IMG/VR virus record: IMGVR_UViG_2703718869_000008
Span: 1 to 10,500 of that record
Reading direction: 5' to 3' (one strand)
DNA from: a virus
Lineage: Duplodnaviria; Heunggongvirae; Uroviricota; Caudoviricetes
DNA: 10,500 nucleotides
Every line of letters starts with the position of its first letter. Positions within the stretch are counted from its first letter, which is position 1. Position numbers and translations under genes: made by a program. Shown in pieces: positions 1 to 10,500 of the stretch. The notes beneath the pieces are model-generated. The model searched no databases and was not told where the DNA came from. It saw nothing but the letters and a program-made list of their open reading frames with translations.

Positions 1-239
1 CGTCCATATTTCTTTCCCATCCAGGCGTTATCACCAACACGCTCAAGATGCGGAGGGTCGAATATAACCATCGAAAAAGATGCGTCTGCAAATGGTAGTG
101 CACGAAAATCAGCTATCAGATCAGGACTGATAATCAGGCGTCGTCCATCACACAATGTGTGCTCTTCCTTTCTGATATCGCTAAATATCGCCCGGTCGTC
201 ATTCTTATCGAACCAGAACATGCGACTGCCACAGCACAT
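1..239 (-). CDS. Putative SAM-dependent (DNA) methyltransferase, N-terminal fragment; ORF is open to the left window edge
   Basis: Hand translation of the minus strand from ATG (plus 237-239) gives MCCGSRMFWFDKNDDRAIFSDIRKEEHTLCDGRRLIISPDLIADFRALPFADASFSMVIFDPPHLERVGDNAWMGKKYG with no stop before position 1. The LP-x-x-S-x-x-x-VIFDPPH segment resembles motif IV (DPPY-type) of beta-class N6A/N4C methyltransferases. Absent from the ORF track because it has no stop in the window. Start is uncertain (ATG at 239 or 221; no strong RBS). Confidence 0.45.
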   Translation of the reverse strand, partial: MCCGSRMFWFDKNDDRAIFSDIRKEEHTLCDGRRLIISPDLIADFRALPFADASFSMVIFDPPHLERVGDNAWMGKKYG

Positions 240-262
240 GTCGAGGATTGCTGCATGTCCAG

Positions 263-613
263 TCACTGGCTGCCTCCTTTGCGAAGCCGTTCCGCCCATT
301 CTTCAAGGGATTTCTCTGCATATTCACCGGACAGGCCATCAATCGGATGCGATTCATTAGCTAACTCTTCTTTTGCTGACAGAATCATGCGTGTAACGTC
401 GAAAACTTCAGCCAAAGGCTTATTGATAAATCCGTGATTGAAAGCAGCAGCAAGACGGCTTGCGGTATAGTTAATACCCTCGTTGCGAGCCTCAGCACGT
501 ACTTCATCGAATTTACGCACCAGATACTCAGCATTTGTTTCATTCACTTTCAGATCTCGCGGTACACATTTCCCGCGAAGAAACCCTTCCATTTCGAAAA
601 CATTCATGCGCAT
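263..613 (-). CDS. Hypothetical protein, last gene of the leftward early cluster (positional equivalent of yfdS)
   Basis: 116-aa ORF whose start overlaps the stop of the upstream HD-domain gene by 10 nt, suggesting co-transcription and coupling. No recognisable motif. Confidence 0.6.
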   Translation of the reverse strand: MRMNVFEMEGFLRGKCVPRDLKVNETNAEYLVRKFDEVRAEARNEGINYTASRLAAAFNHGFINKPLAEVFDVTRMILSAKEELANESHPIDGLSGEYAEKSLEEWAERLRKGGSQ

Positions 614-1140
614 TTGTGTAACTCCGATAACTCGTTAAAACGTTCCATAAACATCCCGTAGGCATGGCTAGGTGCCAGTGGAATCACGTTGAACATCTCT
701 GTTGCCGGGATGCCTTCCAGTACAGGCCAGAAAGAGCCATCATCAAGCCCGAGATCGCGGCGTTCGGTTGCCAGCATGATAAGATCGGCATATTTCACGG
801 GCGTACTCATAACTGGGGGTAACCCGTATTTCTCACGGATTACGGCGTCAATTTTTTCTTCCATCCGTTTATAGTCAGGAAGAAGGCGTTTCAGTGGAGC
901 GGGGATGTCCTGGCAATACGCTTCTGTTGCATCATGCATTAATGCTTCAAAAGCAAATTCCTGCGGTACCAGCTGGCTGCAAAGAACCGCATGTTGGGCG
1001 ACGCTGTAGAAGTGCGAAAGATGACCGGCAAAGCGACAGATATTTGAAAGGGAAACCGCGATATCGTTAATATCGATGTCGTCTTTATTTATCCTGTCAT
1101 AATAAAAATGCTTCCCGGAAAAAGTTTTAATAAATGACAT
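604..1140 (-). CDS. yfdR: HD-domain metal-dependent phosphohydrolase (YfbR/YfdR-like 5'-nucleotidase family)
   Basis: Track ORF 604..1167 starts at GTG; the internal ATG at 1140 is preceded by GGAGAA-N5 and gives 178 aa (MSFIKTF...). H...HD motif (SVAQHAVL...LMHDATEAY) is typical of HD phosphohydrolases. Size and position after a 274-aa gene match the K-12 CPS-53 yfdQ-yfdR arrangement; the symbol is assigned from synteny and size, not from a search. Confidence 0.78.
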   Translation of the reverse strand: MSFIKTFSGKHFYYDRINKDDIDINDIAVSLSNICRFAGHLSHFYSVAQHAVLCSQLVPQEFAFEALMHDATEAYCQDIPAPLKRLLPDYKRMEEKIDAVIREKYGLPPVMSTPVKYADLIMLATERRDLGLDDGSFWPVLEGIPATEMFNVIPLAPSHAYGMFMERFNELSELHKCA

Positions 1141-1233
1141 TTTGTTCTCCACGTATATGCGCTGCACCGCGCTGAATTCTGGTAAAAAGAATCCCTCACC
1201 ATCCGGCGATTATTGAGTAAATTACGTTTCCAT

Positions 1234-1255
1234 AAATGCCCCCTCAGGGGCATTT
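1234..1255 (-). other. Perfect palindromic hairpin AAATGCCCC-CTCA-GGGGCATTT in the yfdQ-yfdR intergenic spacer (possible attenuator or RNA-processing/stability element)
   Basis: Seen directly: 9-bp perfect stem with 4-nt loop, 12 nt downstream of the yfdQ-like stop on the transcribed minus strand. No clean U-tract follows, so it is not called a terminator. Confidence 0.35.
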
Positions 1256-1267
1256 GCAGTAATGAAA

Positions 1268-2092
1268 TCAGGCGGTGAAAGTACCAATAAAGGTTTCTAC
1301 TTTGCTGTCCTTGAATTTCTCAACAAGCAGATCACGAAATTCGTTAGCCATTTCTTCCTGCACCGCCTCCAGCTGAATAATGCGCAGAACCAGTACCGGA
1401 CGATCGCCAGTGATAATGCTGAGGCGTAATTTAAACGGACGTTCTTTCAGACCTTCAAACGGAATGCATTTAAATTCAAATGCCACTGGCATAATGTCTT
1501 TGGTCTTCGCTTCGACAGACTCCATCAGGGAGCGTTTGCCGCTGAAGTCATTATCTTCAAAATCAGCGGTCTGGTTTGCTTCAATCGTGATTTTACGGAC
1601 CGCCGCAGCCGCTTTTGTTGCCTGAATGGTGTCACCATTAGCATCAAAGCCCACAAGGTAGTCGGCCCAGTCTTCAATCCATTCTGCCAGTGATTTCTGG
1701 GAGTTACGCTCGCCATTAACAGACAACAGAGCAGAGAACGGTGCTGTCTTTTTCAGTTTGAGAGTGGCGGTGTTATCTGCGTGACCTGGTTCATCAATAG
1801 TACCCAGGTTAAGCACACTGACGGCACGCATATTATCAGCATCAATAAAGCAGCGGGTGCCTTCATCTGCAAGATCTTTAGAATAACGGGTAAAGTCATC
1901 GATGCTGGCAGTGGAAAGAGCACCACGGAAACGGAAGCGATTTAAATTAAATTTTTCCAGATCATGAATGCGGAAATTCTCAGGCAATGCCACAGCATCG
2001 GCACCAATCTTACTGATAATTTCATTAACACCCTGAGCAGAAATAAGGGCATGGATTTGATTAATTGCGGTTGCGTCTAAGTTCTGAGACAT
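1268..2092 (-). CDS. yfdQ: YfdQ-like protein (DUF2303 family), function unknown
   Basis: 274-aa ORF, the same length as K-12 YfdQ, with GAGGA-N7-ATG RBS and the same order P-Q-R as the CPS-53 cluster. Family assignment is from memory and synteny, not a search. Confidence 0.75.
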
Positions 2093-2157
2093 AATAAGTC
2101 CTCACTATATAAGGATATTCAGTGATGAGATAAATAATCAGTTAATTAAGAACGATA

Positions 2158-2520
2158 TTAATGACCTGCTGCGCGGAGTTTTCCGTCAGGTTCACCGGCA
2201 AGAGTCAGTAATTGTCCCTGGTCTTCCTGCAGAATAGTCAGGCGACCACCGCGATTGACATACATCGGCGTTTCGGTGGTGTCTTCTTCGGAAATTTTCC
2301 CGCGGTTAGTCGGGCGAACATATGAGAGTTTGTGTTTGATTTTCACACGGTTCTCATCAAATGGTTCGATTTCCAGGTTGAGTGAGACCTTACCTTTGGT
2401 TTTCGTGTTCATCACACCTGAAGCGACTTCACTGAGAACTGCGCCGATTTTGGTTTCAAATACGCCGCCGTCCAGCTCCCCGATAAATGCCTGCACATCA
2501 GTACTGCGTTCGCTAGCCAT
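2158..2520 (-). CDS. yfdP: YfdP-like small early protein (120 aa), function unknown
   Basis: Track ORF 2158..2706 has an unlikely 62-codon N-terminal extension across the structured leader. The internal ATG at 2520 is preceded by GAGGAG-N7 and gives MASERSTDVQ..., 120 aa, matching K-12 YfdP size and position. Symbol is from synteny only. Confidence 0.65.
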   Translation of the reverse strand: MASERSTDVQAFIGELDGGVFETKIGAVLSEVASGVMNTKTKGKVSLNLEIEPFDENRVKIKHKLSYVRPTNRGKISEEDTTETPMYVNRGGRLTILQEDQGQLLTLAGEPDGKLRAAGH

Positions 2521-2568
2521 TTTGCTGCTCCTCATCATATCGACCCTGCAAGGTCGGTTGGTTTCTCC

Positions 2569-2657
2569 ACAAAACAGAGAAGAACACCTGCGGTGGCAGC
2601 CGCCCGGATGGATTGGGTTATGAGCCCGTCGTCCGGTGATGCTCTTCTCTGTTTTGT
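2569..2657 (-). repeat. Long-range perfect 15-bp inverted repeat (ACAAAACAGAGAAGA / TCTTCTCTGTTTTGT) with 59-nt spacer in the leader upstream of the yfdP-like gene
   Basis: Seen directly: arms at 2569-2583 and 2643-2657 are exact reverse complements. The spacer contains a further small GC stem (GCGG...CCGC). Confidence 0.6.
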
Positions 2658-2703
2658 AAAAAGAGCGGTACCAGCCGGAAGCAAGTGTACAAACTGGTAC
2701 CGC
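2656..2703 (-). terminator. Terminator-like hairpin (10-bp perfect stem GCGGTACCAG/CTGGTACCGC, 19-nt loop) followed on the minus strand by UCUUUUUAC
   Basis: Seen directly: plus 2665-2674 and 2694-2703 are exact reverse complements, and a T-tract follows in the minus-strand sense. The loop is long for a classical intrinsic terminator. It lies between the N-position HTH gene and the yfdP-like gene (tL1-like position). Confidence 0.4.
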
Positions 2704-2934
2704 CAAAGCAGTGGCTGTTGTGGTGACCGGTGCTGATCTCCGGCTTGCGGTTATTTCAGACTCTCACGGGCGTTTAATTACCCCGCCGAACAGCTCTTTT
2801 CCGCAATAGCTGCAATGTCTTTCGCGCATCAGCCTGCGCATTCACCACAACGCTAAGGATTCTCTCTGGTTGAAAATACTTAGCTGTTATGTGCCTGCTT
2901 TTAGCCACATCAGGCGAGGTGGTAGGTACGTGAG

Positions 2935-3303
2935 CTACTTGGTGGTATTTGCCTTCGATGAGGCAAGATAGGCATCAAGATCACTTTTTAGGTAAATAAC
3001 CTTTCTACCGATTTTTAAAAAAGGTATTCGAACTTTTCCTGTGCTAGCCCAATTAGCTAAGGTTTGCGCTTCTACGCCGATATAGGCTGCGGCGTCTTCT
3101 CTATTCATTTTTTCATGTTGTTCTGACAGAATACTCGTTGCTTCAAAATCAAAGCCCAGCTTTTCAAAGGCATAGATAATAGAGCCCAAAGCCATTTGTT
3201 TAACTGTTCTGTAGTTACTGCTTTCAACTTGGCTTAATGCAGTTTTTGCTGCTTCAATCACCACAAGCCAGGCATCTCGTTGGTTGTCGATACTGCCATC
3301 CAT
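2935..3303 (-). CDS. Helix-turn-helix DNA-binding protein (Xis/AlpA/MerR-like HTH in C-terminal half), first gene of the leftward early operon
   Basis: ATG at 3303 preceded by AGGAGA-N6 (track start GTG at 3309 abuts the RBS). C-terminal segment AAAYIGVEAQTLANWASTGKVRIPFLKIGRKVIYLKSDLDAYL resembles small excisionase-type HTH domains. Low-GC gene, unlike lambda N (not Arg-rich). Confidence 0.65.
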   Translation of the reverse strand: MDGSIDNQRDAWLVVIEAAKTALSQVESSNYRTVKQMALGSIIYAFEKLGFDFEATSILSEQHEKMNREDAAAYIGVEAQTLANWASTGKVRIPFLKIGRKVIYLKSDLDAYLASSKANTTK

Positions 3304-3361
3304 ATTCACTCTCCTGCCATGTGCGAATCATCCGGTCATTCATACGCCACCGTCGGCTACT

Positions 3362-3420
3362 TCGTGGGCGTCCTGCCTGTTCGTTATCTTTGATATAAAA
3401 TCTAACTTAACTTAGTTTTG
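3362..3420 (-). promoter_or_regulatory. Putative leftward early promoter/operator (pL/oL-like) with CTTAGTT-core operator-like palindromes
   Basis: AT-rich spacer between cI and the next leftward gene. Contains AACTTAGTT (3409-3417), sharing its core with palindromes in the cI-cro intergenic region; CTTAGTT recurs at 3446-3452. Promoter hexamers not confidently assigned. Confidence 0.4.
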
Positions 3421-3425
3421 ATGGC

Positions 3426-3462
3426 AAGAGAAAACACCAAACTTTTCTTAGTTCGGTGTTTT
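3426..3462 (-). terminator. Putative rho-independent terminator immediately downstream of cI (stem AAAACACCGAAC/GUUUGGUGUUUU with one G-U, 8-nt loop, U-rich 3' side)
   Basis: Seen directly: plus 3431-3442 and 3451-3462 are near-perfect reverse complements. On the minus-strand transcript the stem is followed by CUCUU. Lies 19 nt after the cI stop. Confidence 0.45.
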
Positions 3463-3480
3463 GGTTAGAGAAAAGGGGGG

Positions 3481-4107
3481 CTAGAGTTCGTATTGAACTC
3501 CTTTGACTACACCAATGATGAGGCAATTACCATTGATCGGGATGTTGGGGTACCGGGGATTTAATGGCACTAAAAACTTTTGAGGGCCATCGATAACTAA
3601 TTTTTTTACTGTGGCTTCGTTTGTTCCATCAAGTCTAGCGATGACTATTTTTCCATGCCGGGGTTCTGCATCAGGATCTACAATCACTGTTGCGCCTTCT
3701 GGTATTGTTGGGAGGCCGTTAGGGTTAGTCATGGAGTCGCCTTTAACCTCCAATGCAAATGAGTTATCACCAATCTTTAATGATGTATCTACCCACTTGT
3801 CTACTTCACTAAACACTTCTGCTGTCCTGCACTCAGTAAACTGCCCAGCCTGAACCCACGAGATTACAGGAACTCTGCGCATGTTTGTGACGAGTTTGCC
3901 TTCAAACTCCGCACCATAAAGAATGTAATCTATTGACGTATTGAAGAACTTCGCTAATTTTGAAAGTGCTTCCCCTCCAGGGACATTGATGTCTTTCTCC
4001 CAGTACCCCACAGCAACGTCACTTACTCCACAAAATTTACCCAATTCTTTCTGGGACGTTCTGGTAACTCTTCTCAGAGCTTTTATACGCTGACCAACCG
4101 TTTCCAT
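3481..4107 (-). CDS. cI: Phage CI-type repressor (N-terminal XRE-family HTH plus C-terminal S24 LexA-like autopeptidase domain)
   Basis: 208 aa. N-terminal HTH (QKELGKFCGVSDVAVGYWE), GDSM serine motif and downstream KK lysine motif typical of RecA-stimulated self-cleaving repressors. Divergent from a cro-like gene. Confidence 0.9.
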   Translation of the reverse strand: METVGQRIKALRRVTRTSQKELGKFCGVSDVAVGYWEKDINVPGGEALSKLAKFFNTSIDYILYGAEFEGKLVTNMRRVPVISWVQAGQFTECRTAEVFSEVDKWVDTSLKIGDNSFALEVKGDSMTNPNGLPTIPEGATVIVDPDAEPRHGKIVIARLDGTNEATVKKLVIDGPQKFLVPLNPRYPNIPINGNCLIIGVVKGVQYEL

Positions 4108-4204
4108 AGGAGCACCATTTCTTTAATTACTAAGTAATCTTAGTTTTTATTGACCTAAGATAGATTGATAATTAACATCTAATAAAACTTAGTTTGGAGG
4201 GCAT
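4108..4204. promoter_or_regulatory. Divergent immunity promoter/operator region (pRM/pR-like) with repeated near-palindromes ATTACTAAGTAAT and AAACTTAGTTT
   Basis: 97-bp AT-rich spacer between divergent cI and cro-like starts. Palindromes at 4126-4138 and 4185-4195 plus CTTAG/CTAAG at 4139-4143 and 4154-4158. Candidate pR: TTGACC (4150-4155), 17-nt spacer, TAACAT (4173-4178). GGAGG RBS 4 nt before the cro ATG. Confidence 0.6.
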
Positions 4205-4405
4205 ATGACGACTGACGATATCGAAAGCTACTTCGGCAGCATTGAGAAAGTTGCTGCTTTTTTCGGCATAACAACTGAAGCCGTTTATCAGTGGCGAAAC
4301 CGTCCTGGCCAGTTAATTCCAAAAGGACGTGCAGCAGAGGCTGCATATAGAACTTGCGGACGGTTGCCATTTAAACCTGAGCTTTATGAAAAATCTAATG
4401 GATAA
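4205..4405 (+). CDS. cro: Cro-like small HTH regulator (Cro/YdaS-type)
   Basis: 66-aa ORF divergent from cI, GGAGG RBS, central HTH-like segment (VAAFFGITTEAVYQWRNR). Position and size match cro. Symbol is positional/functional, not a lambda Cro sequence match. Confidence 0.75.
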   Translation: MTTDDIESYFGSIEKVAAFFGITTEAVYQWRNRPGQLIPKGRAAEAAYRTCGRLPFKPELYEKSNG

Positions 4406-4442
4406 ATCGATTTACAGAAACCACAGATATGAGGGCTTAAAC

Positions 4443-5027
4443 GTGGGTAAAGAACCTGAATGGAAAGTTGATAAGCAACCAGCATGGCTGGTGGCAGCAA
4501 TACGAAGAACGATTGCTGATTTACCTCATGGCTATGAGGAAGCAGCAGAAATTCTTGGTTTGTATAAATCTGATGATATCACCCCAGCAAAAGATCAATT
4601 GCATAACAGACTGCGTAGCGGTGGGGATCAAATTTTTCCACTTGAGTGGGCCATGGTTTTACAGGATGCCAGTGGTACCAGGCATGTAACGGATGCAATA
4701 GCCCGTCGTAGTAATGGGGTGTTTGTGCCGCTGGTGGTCATTGATGACATTGACAATGGTGACATTAATCAGCGGCTGATGGAGTCAATAGAATGGATTG
4801 GCAAGCATTCCCAGTACTTACGCAAGGCAACTGCTGATGGAGTTATTGACCAAGCTGAGCGTGAGCAAATCGAAGAGAACAGCTACCAAGTAATGGCGAA
4901 GTGGCAGGAGCATTTAACACTGTTATTTCGTGTTTTTTGTGCGCCGGAAAAGAGTAACGCCCGCGAGTGTGCAGCTCCGGGCGTCGTGGCGTCGATTGCT
5001 TCTGGTTGTGGAGAAACTAACGCATGA
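4443..5027 (+). CDS. Hypothetical early regulator in the cII position (possibly CII/YdaT-like); start uncertain
   Basis: Track ORF 4329..5027 overlaps cro in another frame. In-frame GTG at 4443 is preceded by GAGGG-N7; alternatives are ATG 4386 or 4398 without a good RBS. Stop overlaps the next start (ATGA). Function inferred only from position. Confidence 0.55.
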   Translation: MGKEPEWKVDKQPAWLVAAIRRTIADLPHGYEEAAEILGLYKSDDITPAKDQLHNRLRSGGDQIFPLEWAMVLQDASGTRHVTDAIARRSNGVFVPLVVIDDIDNGDINQRLMESIEWIGKHSQYLRKATADGVIDQAEREQIEENSYQVMAKWQEHLTLLFRVFCAPEKSNARECAAPGVVASIASGCGETNA

Positions 5028-5860
5028 ACAGTTTAACGGCAAATAACCGTTTGTCGCAACAGCTGGTGTTCAGTGTCGCTGAACACCTGTTGTTACGGCA
5101 TGAATGCAGATTACCAAATCACCTGGCTGTAAGTAACCACAGAGAACTTTACCTGACTGTGGGGGGCGAGTTGTGCTGGAACTTAACCGCTGGTTTCGTG
5201 ACGGAAGAGGGCTTTATGTCCATGTTATTCGTTGGGAGCCAGAAACACAGCGCGTTATCTATCTTCGCAAAGACTACCCGCATGAGTGCTTTAGTCCTTT
5301 GTGGAAATTCAGGCGTGATTTTGTTGAGTGTGAAGGACCACCAGCACATTGATTCTGCCATTCCGGGACGTTACACTGTTCAGGCACCTTATAAAGCGGG
5401 TGTCGGGATTGGCGTCCTGGAATTGCATACGGCGACAATTGGCGCGTTAGCGTCTTTTTTGTTGCTACAACTCAGCTATACCCAAATTATGGTGGGCTGG
5501 GTGGGGGCACCGAAAGGTGCGCCGGTTTCCGTATGCGCCGGTTACGCCAACCCTGCTCAGTTCACCACCAGCGAAATTGGCGTTTCCGGTGGTGGAAGTT
5601 ATCCATTGCATACGGAGGCTGCCATCATGGCTACTGTCCCAGCCCTCTCTCGTCTGAATGATGAAGACTTACATAAACTCAGTTATGTAACAACTGCACT
5701 ACGTGCTCTGCGCAAGGTAACTCTTTCGGATCCGCAGGCGCATCAGGTTTTGGTAGAAACCCTTCTTAACTTGCAGGCTGAACGTATTCGTCTGGCGGAT
5801 AAGGCTAATTTTCATATTCACCGTCTCCTGAATATCAGCGGAGGGCATCGTCATGCTTAA
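5024..5860 (+). CDS. Hypothetical protein (278 aa), unknown function
   Basis: Long stop-free frame; ATGA overlap with the upstream gene and ATGCTTAA overlap with the downstream gene. C-terminal 75 aa look clearly protein-like, but the middle is compositionally odd and an alternative frame is also open (see findings). Confidence 0.5.
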   Translation: MNSLTANNRLSQQLVFSVAEHLLLRHECRLPNHLAVSNHRELYLTVGGELCWNLTAGFVTEEGFMSMLFVGSQKHSALSIFAKTTRMSALVLCGNSGVILLSVKDHQHIDSAIPGRYTVQAPYKAGVGIGVLELHTATIGALASFLLLQLSYTQIMVGWVGAPKGAPVSVCAGYANPAQFTTSEIGVSGGGSYPLHTEAAIMATVPALSRLNDEDLHKLSYVTTALRALRKVTLSDPQAHQVLVETLLNLQAERIRLADKANFHIHRLLNISGGHRHA

Positions 5861-6089
5861 TCCGTTGATCCTCAATATTTGCCGTTTGCTTCAGCGTAAA
5901 AAAACATCAATTCCTACAGTTGGGCAGTGGTACACCACGCCTGCAGGGCATGTTCTACGTGTCAGCCTGGTTGACCGTGAATGTCAGAAGGTGATTTGTG
6001 AACCGCTGGGCCGTAATTACCGCGTCAGTATGCCGCTTATAGCCTTTCGCTCCGGAAAAAACATGAAGCATCTCGGAGGTGCAGCATGA
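5853..6089 (+). CDS. Hypothetical small protein (78 aa)
   Basis: GGAGGG-N7-ATG RBS and translational coupling on both sides (overlaps upstream stop; ATGA overlap with the initiator gene). Confidence 0.6.
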   Translation: MLNPLILNICRLLQRKKTSIPTVGQWYTTPAGHVLRVSLVDRECQKVICEPLGRNYRVSMPLIAFRSGKNMKHLGGAA

Positions 6090-6904
6090 GTATGGAGCTG
6101 ATGGTTAAAGCGATGAAAATTCGAGTGGGTAATCCATTGCGAAAACTGGTTCTGATCAAGCTGGCTGATAATGCCAGCGATCAGGGTGAGTGCTGGCCCA
6201 GCTACCAGCATATTGCTGACCAGTGCGAGATTAGCAAACGTTCTGTGATGAATCATATTGCGGCCCTTTGTGATTCCGGGCTGGTAAAAAAAGTCACCCG
6301 GAAAGGTGAAAAAGGTAACTCAAGTAATATCTATCTCCTTCATCTTGATGGTGCAGGAGATTCACTAGGGGGTAGTGCAAATAATTCACTATCTAGTGCA
6401 GCAAATTCACCAGGTAGTGCAGGAGTTGCACCAGGGGGTGGTGCAGGAGATTCACCCAGAACCAGTCACTCTTTTGAACCAGTCAAAGAACCAGTCAATG
6501 AACCAATAGCTGTTGGTGCATCTGCTGATGAGTCCGTGCGAGTTCGTTCAAACCGACCGGAATACTCTCCGGAGTTTGAGCAGGCATGGCTGGCATACCC
6601 CAAACGTGCTGGTGGCAATTCAAAATCTGCAGCCTTCAAAGCCTGGAAAGCTCGTTTGAATGAGGGGGTAAAACCCGAAACCATGCTGGAAGGTGTGAAA
6701 CGCTACGCGGGCTGGGTATCTGCGATGGGTAACAGCGGCACACAATTTGTGAAACAGGCTGTCACGTTCTTTGGTCCGGATCGTCATTTCGAAGAATCCT
6801 GGGAAGTTCCTGCGGTATCTGCAGCCAGACGCGAGGACCCGTACTTCAAAGCCAGTTACGACAACGTGGACTACAGCCAGATCCCGGCAGGATTCAGGGG
6901 GTGA
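6086..6904 (+). CDS. Phage replication initiator (lambda O-like organisation: N-terminal HTH, internal iteron-encoded Gly/Ser/Ala linker, C-terminal domain)
   Basis: GGAGG-N7-ATG. N-terminal HTH segment (LVLIKLADNASDQGECWPSYQHIADQCEISKRSVMNHIAALCDSGLV) typical of phage replication initiators. The middle of the gene carries tandem iterons, as in lambda O. Not the lambda O sequence itself. Confidence 0.72.
   Translation: MSMELMVKAMKIRVGNPLRKLVLIKLADNASDQGECWPSYQHIADQCEISKRSVMNHIAALCDSGLVKKVTRKGEKGNSSNIYLLHLDGAGDSLGGSANNSLSSAANSPGSAGVAPGGGAGDSPRTSHSFEPVKEPVNEPIAVGASADESVRVRSNRPEYSPEFEQAWLAYPKRAGGNSKSAAFKAWKARLNEGVKPETMLEGVKRYAGWVSAMGNSGTQFVKQAVTFFGPDRHFEESWEVPAVSAARREDPYFKASYDNVDYSQIPAGFRG
6347..6506 (+). 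repeat. Putative replication origin: five 15-bp iterons GTGCA-N5-T(T/G)CAC at 21-24 bp spacing, then three to four GAACCAGTCA repeats
   Basis: Seen directly: iterons start at 6351, 6375, 6396, 6417 and 6441 (first and fifth identical: GTGCAGGAGATTCAC). GAACCAGTCA occurs at 6459, 6476 and 6488 with a degenerate copy at 6500. Located inside the initiator gene, analogous to ori-lambda within O. Confidence 0.55.
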
Positions 6905-6906
6905 TC

Positions 6907-7395
6907 ATGAGTCTTTTGAATGAAGTTCAGAAATTCATTGAAGCCCATCCGGGGTGTACTTCCGGAGACATTGCGGATGCTTTTGCAGGTTACTCACGGC
7001 AGCGCGTTCTGCAGTCAGCAAGCAAGTTACGTCAGAGTGGGCGTGTGGCTCACCGTTGTGAAGGAGATACACGCAGACATTTCCCGCGCCTGACTGAGAG
7101 AGCGCAGGAACCGGAACCACAACCAGTTCGAGAAACCAGACCTGTGCGCAATTTCTATGTCGGCACTAACGATCCACGGGTGATTTTGTGCCTGACCCGC
7201 CAGGCTGAAGAACTGGAGTCCAGGGGCTTATACCGTCGTGCTGCAACCGTGTGGATGGCGGCATTCCGTGAAAGCCACTCCCAGCCAGAACAAAACAATT
7301 TTCTGGCGCGTCGTGAGCGGTGCTTACGGAAAAGCAGCAAGCGCGCTGCATCGGGTGAAGAGTGGTATCTGTCAGGGAATTACGTGGGGGCTTAA
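6907..7395 (+). CDS. Putative PerC/Pch-family transcriptional regulator with extra N-terminal domain
   Basis: GGGGG-N5-ATG at 6907 (track start GTG 6901 overlaps the upstream stop). C-terminal AEELESRGLYRRAATVWMAAF resembles the PerC signature (LE-x-GL-W/Y-RRAA-x-W) as recalled. Stop overlaps the next start (TAATG). Family assignment is tentative. Confidence 0.5.
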   Translation: MSLLNEVQKFIEAHPGCTSGDIADAFAGYSRQRVLQSASKLRQSGRVAHRCEGDTRRHFPRLTERAQEPEPQPVRETRPVRNFYVGTNDPRVILCLTRQAEELESRGLYRRAATVWMAAFRESHSQPEQNNFLARRERCLRKSSKRAASGEEWYLSGNYVGA

Positions 7396-8048
7396 TGAGT
7401 AATAAATATTGCCAGGCGCTGGTGGAACTGCGGAACAAACCAGCCCATGAACTGAAGGAAGTGGGCGATCAGTGGCGCACGCCGGACAACATTTTCTGGG
7501 GAATTAACACCCTGTTTGGCCCGTTTGTTCTGGATCTGTTTACTGACGGTGATAACGCCAAATGTGCCGCGTATTACACGGCGGAAGATAACGCGCTGGC
7601 GCATGACTGGTCAGAACGTCTTGCGGAGCTTAAAGGTGCTGCCTTTGGTAATCCCCCATACAGCCGCGCCAGTCAGCATGAGGGGAAATACATCACTGGC
7701 ATGCGTTACATCATGAAGCATGCCAGTGCCATGCGTGATAAAGGCGGGCGCTATGTTTTCCTGATCAAAGCTGCCACCAGCGAAGTGTGGTGGCCGGAAG
7801 ATGCAGATCATATTACTTTTATTCGCGGGCGTATTGGTTTTGAACTGCCTGTCTGGTTTATCCCGAAAGACGAGAAGCAGGTACCGACAGGAGCTTTTTT
7901 CGCTGGTGCTATTGCTGTTTTTGACAAGACCTGGAAGGGACCGGCAATCAGCTACATTGGGCGCGATGAACTTGAGGCATGTGGTGAGGCGTTTCTGGCG
8001 CAGGTTCGCCAGCAGGCGGAAAAACTGGTCAGGGAGATGGCTGCATGA
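7395..8048 (+). CDS. Phage-type DNA N6-adenine methyltransferase (Dam family), orphan
   Basis: GGGGG-N4-ATG at 7395 (track ORF starts upstream at 7362 in the same frame). Motifs WRTPD, FVLDLFTD and catalytic NPPYS are characteristic of the phage Dam family. No adjacent restriction endonuclease gene. Confidence 0.85.
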   Translation: MSNKYCQALVELRNKPAHELKEVGDQWRTPDNIFWGINTLFGPFVLDLFTDGDNAKCAAYYTAEDNALAHDWSERLAELKGAAFGNPPYSRASQHEGKYITGMRYIMKHASAMRDKGGRYVFLIKAATSEVWWPEDADHITFIRGRIGFELPVWFIPKDEKQVPTGAFFAGAIAVFDKTWKGPAISYIGRDELEACGEAFLAQVRQQAEKLVREMAA

Positions 8049-8371
8049 CGACATTAACTCAATGCCAGCAGCAGGTGCTGGATATGCTGATTTCTTATCA
8101 GAAAGAGCGTGGCTTTCCGCCAACCAATCAGGAGGTGGCAACCATGCTGGGATACCGTTCAGTGAATGCAGCGGTAGAGCATCTTCGCGCACTGGAGAAA
8201 AAAGGCGTCATCACGATAAAGCGTGGCGTGGCCCGGGGGATAACGCTTCATACCGCGGTGAAGGACGACGACAGCGAGGCGGTCGGGATTATCCACTCAC
8301 TGCTTGCCGGTGAGGAAAACGCAAGGCTGCGTGCAACCCACTGGTTACATGAGAGGGGCCTGAAAGTATGA
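8045..8371 (+). CDS. LexA N-terminal DNA-binding-domain homolog lacking the S24 peptidase/cleavage domain
   Basis: 108 aa. N-terminal ~70 aa align closely with E. coli LexA residues 1-70 as recalled (MTTLTQCQQQVLDMLISYQKERGFPPTNQEVATMLGYRSVNAAVEHLRALEKKGVI vs [56 protein letters not shown]). Recognition-helix residues NAA-EHL are conserved; there is no Ala-Gly cleavage site or Ser/Lys dyad. ATGA overlaps on both sides. Confidence 0.8.
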   Translation: MTTLTQCQQQVLDMLISYQKERGFPPTNQEVATMLGYRSVNAAVEHLRALEKKGVITIKRGVARGITLHTAVKDDDSEAVGIIHSLLAGEENARLRATHWLHERGLKV

Positions 8372-8763
8372 AGCTGATCCTGCCTTTTCCGCCCAGCGTG
8401 AACACGTACTGGCGACACCCCAACAAAGGGGCGTTTGCTGGTAAGAGCCTGATAAGCGCGGCGGGGCGCAAATTCCAGAGCGCGGCGTGTGCAGCAATAG
8501 TTGAGCAGTTACGTCGTCTGCCAAAACCAACGTCGGCACCTGCATCAGTGGAGATCGTGTTGTTTCCTCCGGATAACCGGATCCGCGATCTGGACAACTA
8601 TAACAAGGCGCTGTTTGACGCCCTGACCCACGCGGGTGTGTGGGAAGACGACAGTCAGGTGAAAAGAATGCTGGTGGAGTGGGGACCGGTTATCCCGGAA
8701 GGGAAGGTCGAGATCACTATCAGTAAGTACGAAAAAGCGAGTTGCAAATTAGCAACTCGGTAA
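8368..8763 (+). CDS. rusA: RusA-family Holliday junction resolvase
   Basis: 131 aa. N-terminal LPFPPSVNTYWRH and central DLDNYNKALFDALTHAGVWEDDSQV match the RusA pattern (PWPPS-N-YYR, DLDN-K---DALT-AG-W-DD-QV). Typical nin-region position. Confidence 0.88.
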   Translation: MKLILPFPPSVNTYWRHPNKGAFAGKSLISAAGRKFQSAACAAIVEQLRRLPKPTSAPASVEIVLFPPDNRIRDLDNYNKALFDALTHAGVWEDDSQVKRMLVEWGPVIPEGKVEITISKYEKASCKLATR

Positions 8764-8808
8764 CGGAATTGAGCAACACCCTAAATTTGGGTATTACCTC
8801 GTTAAAGA

Positions 8809-8828
8809 TACTGTATTTATGAACAGTG
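8809..8828 (+). promoter_or_regulatory. Canonical LexA (SOS) box TACTGTATTTATGAACAGTG upstream of the KilA-N gene
   Basis: Seen directly: CTGT-N8-ACAG with AT-rich spacer, close to consensus TACTGTATATATATACAGTA. Lies about 87 nt upstream of the KilA-N start in an AT-rich intergenic region that presumably holds its promoter. Confidence 0.6.
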
Positions 8829-8914
8829 TATCCTTGATAACTATTAAAAATCGCAGTAAGTTCATCTTGCATCAACGAAAAGGGAGTGCAGTCCCGAAAT
8901 TTGTGGAGAAACCA

Positions 8915-9730
8915 ATGAATCAGTTGCTTGTAATTGATGGCGTTTCTGTGCGCCAGTACTTTGAATCTAACTACTGTCTTAACGACCTTCAGAAAGCTGC
9001 TCTTCTTGCCGCTGGTGAGAATCGCTCCTCCCGTTCGCTGGAAGTTCACGAGTTTATGCGTCGTCCTGAAACGAAGGCTCTTGTGGAATTACTGGAAGAA
9101 GAAACTACGGGAGATTCCCGTAGTATTCCTGTCATCACCATTCAGGGGCGCAATGGTGGGACGTATGTCTGTAAAGAGCTGGTCTATGCATATGCAATGT
9201 GGATCAGCCCGGCATTCAGCTTAAAAGTGATACGTACTTTTGATGCGCTTCATAATTCATCACCAGAAGAAACCACATCCGACAAAATTAAATCCGGGGT
9301 CATTCTGCTTGAATCAGCAGCAAAGACTCTAAATCTGTCAAACTCCTCGAAACTTGGTGCATACCAGAAATTATCAAAGGTAGCTGGTCTTCCTGAACTT
9401 ATGCCGATCTATGCCATTGATGCACCTGCTGATGCGCCAGATGGTTCAAGCCGCCCTACGCTGTCGCTGAGTGCACTGCTGAAGCAGTATGGTATCCGCC
9501 TGACGGCTAATCAGGCATATCACCAGATGGTGAAGCTGGGGATCGTCGAGCAGCGCGAACGATACAGCCGTACCGGGATTAACAACATCAAAAAATTCTG
9601 GTCGCTGACGGCGAAAGGCTGCATGTTCGGCAAGAACATCACCAGTCCCGCAAATCCGCGCGAGACGCAGCCGCATTTCTTCGAATCCCGATTCCCTGAG
9701 CTGTTAAAGCTGCTCGATACCGTTCATTGA
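8915..9730 (+). CDS. KilA-N domain protein (candidate SOS-inducible antirepressor or Kil-like factor)
   Basis: ATG at 8915 with GGAGAA-N5 (track start 8819 lies inside the SOS box and is unlikely). N-terminal region (VSVRQYFESNYCLNDLQKAA...GRNGGTYVCKELVYAYAMWISPAFSLKVIRTFDAL) fits the KilA-N pattern. Gene is lower in GC than its neighbours (moron-like). Confidence 0.75.
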   Translation: MNQLLVIDGVSVRQYFESNYCLNDLQKAALLAAGENRSSRSLEVHEFMRRPETKALVELLEEETTGDSRSIPVITIQGRNGGTYVCKELVYAYAMWISPAFSLKVIRTFDALHNSSPEETTSDKIKSGVILLESAAKTLNLSNSSKLGAYQKLSKVAGLPELMPIYAIDAPADAPDGSSRPTLSLSALLKQYGIRLTANQAYHQMVKLGIVEQRERYSRTGINNIKKFWSLTAKGCMFGKNITSPANPRETQPHFFESRFPELLKLLDTVH

Positions 9731-9737
9731 GGTGACC

Positions 9738-10500
9738 GTGAGAGCACTACTGACCCCTGAAATTGCCCCGCGTATGGGGATCGTATTGTTCAGGCCAGGT
9801 TCAGAGCTGATGCCCCTGTTTATGCAGGGGCGTGTCCTGCTGGAGCCTGAGCCGGAACGTTATTCATCTTTCGCTAGTGGTGCCGTTCCGGCGGCATCAC
9901 AACCGCTGGCGGATGATCCTTCCGTTCGGGCCGTGTTCCGCAATGAGGCAGTGATCCGTCGTGCTGGTGGCGTGGAATGTCTTGAAAGCTGGTTACTTCG
10001 TGAAAAAGGCTGCCAGTGGCTTCATTCCGACTGGCACAGCGAGAACATGACCACAATGCGACACGCTCCGGGTGCAATCCGTCTGTGCTGGCACTGCGAT
10101 AACCAGCTGCGCGATCAGTTCACGGAACGGCTGGAATCAATGGCAACGGATAACTGTGCCCGCTGGGTGTTGTCTGTTGTGCGTCGGGATCTCGGTTTTG
10201 ATGACAGTCACGTTGTGACAATGCCGGAACTGTGCTGGTGGCTGATTCGTAATGACCTGGCGGATGCCTTACCGGAAAGTGCAGCCCGTAAGGCACTGAG
10301 ATTACCGAAGCCTGTTGTGCCGTCTGTCACCCGGGAAAGTGACCTTGTGCCTTCGGTTCCTGCCACCAGCATCATCCAGGATAAAGCGAAAAAGGTGCTG
10401 GCGCTGAAAGTGGATCCGGAGTCGCCGGAGTCTTTTATGTTACGCACCAAACGTCGCCGCTGGGTTAATGAAAAGTACACGCGCTGGGTTAAGACGCAGC
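9738..10500 (+). CDS. Cys/His-rich hypothetical protein, partial (possibly DUF968-like); ORF continues past the right window edge
   Basis: Hand translation from GTG 9738 (GAGGT-N4-GTG) is stop-free to the window end: VRALLTPEIAPRMGIV...CQWLHSDWH...CWHCDNQ...MLRTKRRRWVNEKYTRWVKTQ. Absent from the ORF track because it has no stop. DUF968 assignment is from memory of a similar RRRW-x-NEKYT-x-WV segment; low certainty. Confidence 0.5.
   Translation, partial: MRALLTPEIAPRMGIVLFRPGSELMPLFMQGRVLLEPEPERYSSFASGAVPAASQPLADDPSVRAVFRNEAVIRRAGGVECLESWLLREKGCQWLHSDWHSENMTTMRHAPGAIRLCWHCDNQLRDQFTERLESMATDNCARWVLSVVRRDLGFDDSHVVTMPELCWWLIRNDLADALPESAARKALRLPKPVVPSVTRESDLVPSVPATSIIQDKAKKVLALKVDPESPESFMLRTKRRRWVNEKYTRWVKTQ

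Follow-up and report, generated by a model that had tools for sequence, protein, structure and literature searches.

Introduction

In Salmonella phage P22 the immC switch is formed by the repressor c2, Cro and the operators OR1-3 and OL1-3 (Poteete et al. 1980; structures 2R1J, 3JXB-D), and c2 and cro are divergently transcribed. Within its operator (18-bp numbering) the P22 repressor makes contact with positions 2-7 and 12-17 and reads the uncontacted positions 8-11 indirectly, with a preference for A/T; on the synthetic 3C operator the binding of the wild-type protein is merely non-specific, with a dissociation constant of at least 136 nM (PMC4267663). Here we analysed a cI/cro locus with the same divergent arrangement in a stretch of 10,500 nucleotides, referred to as the window (positions 1 to 10,500 of IMG/VR virus record IMGVR_UViG_2703718869_000008, Caudoviricetes). 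A preliminary description of the window had noticed that the heptamer CTTAGTT is repeated on both sides of cI and had read these repeats as repressor/Cro operators. Our analysis leads to five 16-bp sites, which very probably are the operators of a P22-type lambdoid immunity switch with its own specificity, binding as such being deduced from the sequence.

The operator of N15 Cro, TTATAGCTAGCTATAA (6ON0), is a 16-bp dyad with even symmetry, as are the sites in the window. For Cro proteins an 'evolutionary code' has been formulated by Hall, Lefevre & Cordes, in which Ala at position H3 of the recognition helix goes with A at half-site position +5, Ser or Thr at H3 with G at +5, and Gln at H6 with G at +6 (PMC6649833). 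The controller proteins C.Csp231I and C.EcoO109I (C-box motif 8) of restriction-modification (R-M) systems recognise CTAAG-N5-CTTAG (PMC6765115). The cryptic prophage e14 of E. coli K-12, with the regulators ymfK and ymfT, has in common with the window a ymfL-like cII gene and the leader of the leftward promoter pL at 3316-3385.

Results

The CTTAGTT repeats are halves of 16-bp dyads flanking cI

The window contains the immunity region of a lambdoid prophage. The switch genes are:

3481-4107, minus strand: cI repressor, 208 aa; Pfam HTH_3 (Xre-type helix-turn-helix, HTH) and Peptidase_S24
4205-4405, plus strand: cro, 66 aa, all-helical P22/N15-type; Pfam P22_Cro, E = 4e-11
4197-4202, plus strand: Shine-Dalgarno sequence of cro, GGAGGG

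Transcription of cI, which encodes an HTH and a LexA-like S24 autocleavage domain, diverges from that of the small cro gene. The recognition helix of cI, S29-D-V-A-V-G-Y-W36, lies in the N-terminal HTH, and the C-terminal S24 peptidase domain carries GDS125M; Ala87-Gly88 is the likely autocleavage site. In sequence matches to the PDB the C-terminal domain corresponds to lambda cI (E = 4e-28) and the N-terminal domain to the DNA-binding domain of P22 c2 (E = 6e-11, 42% identity). Cro has the recognition helix T-T-E-A-V-Y-Q-W, and among solved structures N15 Cro (2HIN/6ON0; E = 9e-5) is its closest relative.

CTTAGTT occurs exactly four times in the window, always on the plus strand, at 3411-3417, 3447-3453, 4139-4145 and 4188-4194. 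Three of these positions had been given correctly before; the second had been placed one base too far to the left, at 3446-3452. The window-wide expectation is 0.96 copies, in agreement with the earlier estimate of about one per 10 kb. The bare count is unremarkable, as four copies were reached in 6 of 200 shuffles and about 10% of all heptamers occur at least four times. However, all four copies are confined to the two intergenic regions flanking cI, as had been described, and when these 268 bp were shuffled with preservation of dinucleotides a mean of 0.067 copies was obtained and none of 20,000 shuffles reached four. The significance of CTTAGTT therefore comes from its clustering and not from its number.

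A repeat finder aligned three 31-nt stretches (family D1) with the cores TCTAAC-TTAA-CTTAGT, ACTAAG-TAAT-CTTAGT and TCTAAT-AAAA-CTTAGT. Only 4129-4144 fits the pattern ACTAAG-N4-CTTAGT without mismatch; 3401-3416 and 4178-4193 deviate from it at two positions and 3437-3452 at three, and all of these sites are intergenic. From this dyad alignment it follows that every CTTAGTT forms the right-hand part of an even dyad of 16 bp. By count alone the loose dyad (at most 3 mismatches) is not enriched (4 found, 3.1 expected), and the location of the sites and a weight matrix were therefore needed. A symmetrised matrix was built exclusively from the strong sites of relatives (see below), after removal of sequences identical to window sites; its consensus is TCTAAGTTAACTTAGA. 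Across the ~10,500 positions of the window the following five sites, named after their P22 counterparts, received the top five scores, with the best unrelated background at 2.45 bits:

3401-3416: OL1, TCTAACTTAACTTAGT; 22.3 bits, the maximum of the window; holds the first CTTAGTT
3437-3452: OL2, CCAAACTTTTCTTAGT, weaker; 10.6 bits, rank 4; holds the second CTTAGTT
4129-4144: OR3, ACTAAGTAATCTTAGT, a perfect dyad and the site nearest cI; 21.3 bits; holds the third CTTAGTT
4154-4169: OR2, CCTAAGATAGATTGAT, weak; 5.5 bits, rank 5; without CTTAGTT
4178-4193: OR1, TCTAATAAAACTTAGT; 19.9 bits; holds the fourth CTTAGTT

Since OL2 and OR2 were outside the training set, their recovery is an independent prediction. 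The distance from centre to centre is 25 bp between OR3 and OR2 and 24 bp between OR2 and OR1. The 4-bp centres are TAAT, AAAA, TTAA and TTTT, and ATAG in the weak OR2. These data support the 16-bp dyad (A/T)CTAAG-N4-CTTAG(T/A), with its axis between base pairs, as the conserved unit of five putative operators. The two sites on each side of cI implied by the preliminary description are thus replaced by three in OR and two in OL. It had overlooked the weaker fifth site at 4154-4169, which lacks the heptamer, and had not seen that the 3447 copy lies inside a hairpin with a 13-bp stem (3431-3462). An IHF-like site within OR2 was also considered, and a comparison with WATCAANNNNTTR by eye gave no fit.

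The putative right operator region parallels that of P22 element for element

For comparison, OR and OL were taken from a P22-type phage with a c2 equal to the P22 sequence. Both c2 and the window cI combine an Xre-type HTH with an S24 domain and are 47% identical over the whole protein. The P22 right operator reads CAT-AGTTAAGTCATCTTAAAT-aaac-TTGACT-(ACTAAAGATTCCTTTAGT)-ATAATT-TAAGTGTTCTTTAAT-SD-ATG, and that of the window CAT-21 nt-ACTAAGTAATCTTAGT-tttta-TTGACC-(CCTAAGATAGATTGAT)-TAACAT-CTAATAAAACTTAGT-SD-ATG, with OR2 in parentheses and SD for the Shine-Dalgarno sequence. This match of every element is the reason why the names OR3, OR2 and OR1 were adopted; at the corresponding places P22 has OR3 AGTTAAGTCATCTTAAAT, OR2 ACTAAAGATTCCTTTAGT and OR1 ATTTAAGTGTTCTTTAAT. 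On the left, P22 OL1 ATTTAAGACTTCTTAATT is followed by GGTCAA and the window OL1, in parallel, by GGCAAG. The window 16-mers correspond to positions 2-17 of the P22 operator, and even symmetry and an A/T-rich 4-bp centre are common to both. In contrast to P22, the window has 21 extra bp between OR3 and the start of cI, and its OL2 is fused to the cI terminator.

A consensus scan for promoters gave:

4150-4178, plus strand: pR-like promoter facing cro; -35 TTGACC (4150-4155), 17-nt spacer, -10 TAACAT (4173-4178)
3399-3427, minus strand: pL-like promoter of the leftward early operon; -35 TTGCCA (3427-3422), 17-nt spacer, -10 TAGATT (3404-3399)

The -35 of pL is mostly TTGACC in relatives, and the AATCTA that forms its -10 is conserved. 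Dyads overlap both promoters, which are of the sigma-70 type. The last base of the pR -10 is also the first of OR1, which spans the expected transcription start. OR2 takes in the final two bases of the -35 and lies for the most part in the spacer, and OR3 ends 5 bp before the -35. On the left, OL1 extends over the pL spacer into the -10, of which it includes the first four bases, and OL2 is placed 10 bp upstream of the -35. ATCTAA, the left half of both OL1 and OR1, thereby doubles as -10 sequence, which explains why the right half CTTAGT is better kept and why all heptamers are on one strand.

For the promoter of repressor maintenance, pRM, inspection of the minus strand by hand gave two weak candidates for the -10, TAAGAT (4142-4137) and TAGTAA (4132-4127). 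TAGTAA sits relative to OR3 as the conserved pL -10 TAGATT sits relative to OL1, and OR3 is the probable seat of the pRM -10. With a pRM start near 4120, OR3, OR2 and OR1 would be centred at about -16.5, -41.5 and -65.5, a lambda-like geometry that favours TAGTAA. In lambda the operators are centred at about -19, -42 and -66 relative to the pRM start, close to these values, and lambda cI activates pRM from the position at about -41.5/-42, which OR2 would occupy here.

OR3, OR1 and OL1 are conserved in relatives

One genome per species was searched for relatives, and the spacer and the region downstream of cI were aligned for 20 of them from Enterobacter, Kosakonia, Kluyvera, Serratia, Rahnella, Yersinia, Rouxiella, Providencia and Proteus (cI 63-90% identical). 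In the cI-cro spacer the mean identity to the window was 87% for OR3 and OR1 together, 80% for the pR hexamers, 59% for OR2 and 47% for the other intergenic bases. OR3 is conserved in 19 of the 20, and the distance between OR3 and OR1 is exactly 49 bp in all but one. In OR1, ATCTAA...CTTAG is invariant or nearly so. OL1 is identical or near-identical in 14 relatives.

The preliminary description had taken odd palindromes of 13 and 11 bp as the operator unit, ATTACTAAGTAAT (4126-4138) and AAACTTAGTTT (4184-4194), which would be centred on a base pair as in lambda. Both are present and perfect in the window. Only the second contains CTTAGTT; the first lies directly to the left of a heptamer. Their outer arms are not conserved: the ATTA to the left of ACTAAG is replaced by AAGA, AAAA, TAAA or TTTT in relatives, and the AGTTT to the right of CTT by AGCTA, AGTAA or AGATT. 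Moreover, the two palindromes differ in length and core and neither has a counterpart in OL, whereas the 16-bp frame is common to all five sites, is conserved, fits the Cro code and matches the even symmetry of P22 and N15 (PMC6649833). We therefore regard odd palindromes as very unlikely to be the true operators. The assignment of the repeats to repressor/Cro operators at OL and OR is supported, with the 16-bp dyad as its unit.

OR2 behaves differently from its neighbours and is, judged by these alignments, an evolutionarily soft site. In a commoner E. coli variant (~95.7-95.9% identical, ~470 genomes; L083, APEC E19025) OR3, OR1, OL1 and OL2 are unchanged, OR2 is altered at three positions and the pR -10 is TAGCAT instead of TAACAT. 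These differences in OR2 and the -10 could tune the set-point of the switch. In Rahnella the OR2 position is a clean dyad, CCTAATAAAGATTAGT. OR2 may need cooperative binding, or it may never be bound. On the left side, a third dyad is found 22 bp from OL1 in relatives, ACTAAGTTTTGTTAGA in Proteus (L016/L017) and CCTAAGTTGTCTTGGA in Providencia (L015). The corresponding position in the window, 3379-3394, reads GTTCGTTATCTTTGAT and is degenerate; the Escherichia lineage seems to have lost OL3.

In the loci of Serratia aquatilis (L007) and Rouxiella badensis (L012), cI, OR3, OR1 and the pR hexamers are kept and cro is absent. The first open reading frame (ORF) after pR (897-1298, minus strand, in L007; 884-1315, minus strand, in L012) encodes 133-143 aa and resembles, by eye, a phage antiterminator Q. 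The cro start is likewise missing from the alignment of L010, L011, L014 and L023. Loci without cro may be degraded prophages or satellite-like elements controlled by a repressor.

Half-sites covary with the recognition helices

The preliminary description had suggested a search of other genomes for prophages that share operator and recognition helix. All 20 cI relatives have both the CTAAG half-site and the recognition helix, with Gly at H1 in two Proteus loci. Every relative with this half-site keeps the cI helix GVS(D/G)V(A/S/T)VGYWE(K/R)D, in which G for D at H1 comes from the two Proteus loci and R for K from Providencia. Two more distant repressor clades retain the three-site layout of the spacer and have other helices and half-sites:

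Window group: cI GVS(D/G)V(A/S/T)VGYWE(K/R)D; Cro TTEAVYQW; CTAAG-N4-CTTAG
Photorhabdus/Xenorhabdus clade: cI GVSHVAISQWEKE (P22-like); Cro SDAAVSQW (as P22 Cro); TTAAG-N4-CTTAA
Proteus/Morganella clade: cI GVNRVTVTGWEKG; Cro KHPSVCGW; GTA(G/A)G-N4-CCTAC

Hence, over three repressor clades the half-site covaries with the recognition helices of both cI and Cro.

Further support for the 16-bp frame is provided by the Cro code, which holds in this frame for all three groups and is impossible in the frames of the odd palindromes. In the window, Ala at H3 and Gln at H6 go with the half-site (A/T)1 C2 T3 A4 A5 G6; in the Proteus clade, where Cro has Ser at H3, the half-site TGTAGG offers G at +5. 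N15 Cro shares the helix core AVYQW with the window Cro, and the pairings of Ala H3 with A +5 and of Gln H6 with G +6 hold. The two differ at half-site positions 1-4, which are TTAT in N15 and (A/T)CTA in the window, and at H1/H2, which are Pro-Gly in N15 and Thr-Glu in the window. The H1/+2 rule cannot be applied here, as the window pairs Thr at H1 with C at +2, which is outside the published binary code.

A comparison with P22 at the same level reveals small differences. The half-site is A-T-C-T-A-A-G in the window and A-T-T-T-A-A-G in P22, so that the consensus and the strong sites have C for T at position 3. The cI helix is SDVAVGYW in the window, compared to SNVAISQW in P22 c2, and the Cro helix TTEAVYQW compared to SDAAVSQW. 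In the alignment, the P22 residues for indirect readout, E44 and N46, correspond to V and G in the window cI. The specificity is therefore different from that of P22 immunity, which is defined by the half-site ATTTAAG and the helix SNVAISQW. Because the consensus is of the 3C type and P22 repressor binds 3C only non-specifically, the phage should be heteroimmune to P22. The candidate specificity residues are N to D (H1), S to G (H5) and Q to Y (H6) in cI, and D/A to T/E (H1/H2) and S to Y (H5) in Cro, and it is through these altered helices that the C·G pair might be read. It is possible, and we propose it only tentatively, that the P22 and window immunities are separated by one base pair per half-site and about three residues per recognition helix.

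The putative OL2 is built into a probable cI terminator

The second heptamer lies in a hairpin:

3431-3462, minus strand: intrinsic-terminator-like hairpin overlapping OL2 (inverted repeat I7); 13-bp stem, 6-nt loop, then UUUUCUCUU

The hairpin folds with -15.6 kcal/mol (z = -4.8), and none of 200 shuffles was as stable. On the cI strand it is followed by UUUUCUCUU, 19 nt past the cI stop codon. It is kept in 8 relatives, with double-sided changes in two base pairs, and is most simply explained as the cI terminator. Among the relatives that keep the hairpin, the loop bases beside CTT vary (TTT or AAA) and CTTAG is constant. In relatives from Yersinia, Providencia and Proteus the OL2 position is a good dyad (TCTAATAAAACTTAGC, TCTAAATAAACTTAGC and CTAAGTAGATTTAGA). 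The constant CTTAG together with these dyads suggests that an operator constraint acts on OL2 on top of the RNA constraint.

This overlap raises the question whether the repeats are kept merely as parts of promoters and terminators (-10-like TAG, UP-like A/T tracts, hairpin arms) or as sites of host factors. Indeed, OL1 and OR1 overlap -10 hexamers with their left halves, the heptamer at 3447 is part of a conserved hairpin, and the regions are A/T-rich, with 28% GC at OR. However, the best-kept half, CTTAG(T), is outside the promoter hexamers at OR1, OR3 and OL1, and neither dyad symmetry nor a fixed spacing of 24/25 bp is a promoter trait. In other clades different recognition helices are accompanied by different half-sites but by the same promoter hexamers, and within the hairpin the CTT of the loop is conserved and the adjoining loop bases are variable. 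Such an origin of the repeats is improbable in our judgement, and repressor/Cro binding accounts better for the pattern.

R-M controllers and e14 share parts of the locus

The R-M controllers have a 5-6 bp half-site identical to that of the window (ACTAAG...CTTAGT) and an Xre-type HTH, but their 17-bp site has an N5 spacer and their boxes are paired upstream of the C gene. If the window sites were C-boxes of a C.Csp231I/C.EcoO109I-type controller, the identical 5-bp half-site would be explained (PMC6765115). All five sites have N4 and not N5, there are no R-M genes in the window, and the match of the cI N-terminal domain to C.Csp231I is marginal (E = 0.38, compared to 6e-11 for P22 c2), so that this explanation can practically be dismissed. 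It is conceivable that the CTAAG cores allow cross-talk with C.EcoO109I-type controllers, as reported for the Rac prophage.

The e14 switch has the same anatomy as the window, with a perfect dyad, 4 bp, -35, -10 and a second dyad. Its ymfK-ymfT spacer (L081 3440-3525) reads TTGTACCGTTAAGGTACAA, 4 bp, TTGAAG, TAATAT and GTACACCGGAGGTACAT, and GGTACA-type repeats are also present on the pL side; these GGTACA-type dyads are candidate YmfK/YmfT operators. YmfK and the window cI are 42% identical in the S24 domain, whereas the DNA-binding domain and YmfT are unrelated in sequence. As e14 has no more than the S24 domain and the flanks in common with the window and its dyads are of the GGTACA type, it was rejected as a matching immunity type. 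Shared flanks around an unrelated DNA-binding domain and unrelated dyads indicate that the immunity module is a swapped cassette in a common mosaic slot.

Neighbouring genes, spread and RNA elements

Two further genes with DNA-binding domains adjoin the switch:

2935-3309, minus strand: HTH_17-domain gene, 124 aa, the first leftward ORF, separated from cI by a 170-bp gap
~4443-5027, rightward of cro: CP76/CII-like (YmfL-like) gene

Their proximity would make either product an alternative ligand of the dyads. The sites, however, travel with cI even where neighbours are replaced, as in Rouxiella and Serratia with a Q-like gene in place of cro, and the covariation is with the helices of cI and Cro. 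CII-type activators bind direct TTGC repeats. We consider it highly unlikely that one of these proteins is the one that binds, and keep to cI and Cro.

The best database match of bases 3300-4450 is Escherichia virus mEp460_4F5 (LR595868), with 99.8% identity; phages vB_EcoS-569R4 and vB_EcoM-689R6, at ~95% identity, represent the variant with the altered OR2. The original mEp460 record was not among the megablast matches, and the name 'mEp460 immunity' is therefore not used. The immunity stretch (~1 kb, at least 95% identity) is present in 513 of 5,426 complete E. coli genomes, chromosomal every time. The annotation there does not go beyond the labels 'LexA family protein' and 'Cro/CI family transcriptional regulator' for the genes and leaves the operators unmarked.

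The pL leader, ~70 nt of the leftward transcript at 3316-3385, is 87-96% identical in ST64B, SfV, SfII, 118970_sal3, phiNP, Yersinia YeP1-3 and K-12 e14, and the phages with this conserved leader carry other immunity modules. The consensus scan flagged a terminator-like hairpin in it (3364-3380, plus strand). The Rfam scan found no family over the operator regions or the leader; at a guess, the leader holds an RNA element, nut-like or of another kind. Gathering-level Rfam matches downstream of the cI/cro switch were obtained for the Hfq-binding small RNA isrK (5384-5460, plus strand, 58.9 bits) and for C4 antisense RNA (5485-5572, plus strand, 80.7 bits). The two adjoin each other within ORF 5024-5860, which has a Phage_ASH match. 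The pair looks like an antisense-controlled antirepressor module of the P1/P7 immI type or the Gifsy IsrK type; if so, it would be a second layer of immunity control.

Discussion

The locus combines a divergent HTH-S24 repressor and Cro with three spacer dyads that overlap pR, with copies in OL, and with sites linked to the recognition helices. The positions, conservation and spacing of the sites, their overlap with promoters, the covariation of half-site and helix and the parallel to P22 were all computed directly. Binding itself, its order of affinities, the cooperativity of the sites, the place of pRM and the function of OL2 are predictions that would follow for a switch of this type.

In the proposed mechanism, a dimer of cI, and likewise a dimer of the P22/N15-type Cro, would sit on each 16-bp operator. 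Repressor on OR1 and OR2 would shut off pR and with it cro and the rightward early genes. OR3 would lie over the presumed pRM, and Cro or excess repressor bound there would turn cI off. OR2 would take the position from which pRM is activated, provided that pRM starts near 4120. On the left side, OL1 would cover the spacer and -10 of pL, and OL2, within the cI terminator, would be located upstream of pL. Autocleavage of cI at Ala87-Gly88, triggered by the SOS response through the S24 domain, would empty the operators.

Several points weigh against this interpretation. In the searchable literature neither this phage nor its relatives are covered by data on binding, footprints or mapped transcripts. 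The consensus scan of the region found only pR and pL and no pRM. OR2 scores just 5.5 bits and varies among close E. coli variants, and for OL2 the terminator hairpin that overlaps it is a confounder of the conservation. Finally, conservation in alignments cannot separate binding by cI from binding by Cro, and the relatives are phylogenetically non-independent.

No description of these operators was found in the literature, where many subscription papers lay beyond the search and may contain one. Within a textbook system, and with no new mechanism, the locus thus apparently represents an undescribed and unannotated immunity specificity. The definition (A/T)CTAAG-N4-CTTAG(T/A) predicts which prophages are homoimmune, helps the design of chromatin immunoprecipitation (ChIP) and electrophoretic mobility shift assays (EMSA), and lets annotation pipelines mark OL and OR throughout the group. 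For the synthetic P22 '3C' operator of the studies on direct and indirect readout, the window operators also offer a counterpart from nature. If the tentative separation from P22 by one base pair per half-site is true, the pairing of C at +2 (16-bp frame) with Thr H1 or Tyr H5 of Cro and with Asp H1 or Tyr H6 of cI would be new to the Cro/cI recognition code. The two immunity types would then provide a natural minimal-step case in which a repressor, Cro and five or six operators co-evolved to a new heteroimmune specificity.

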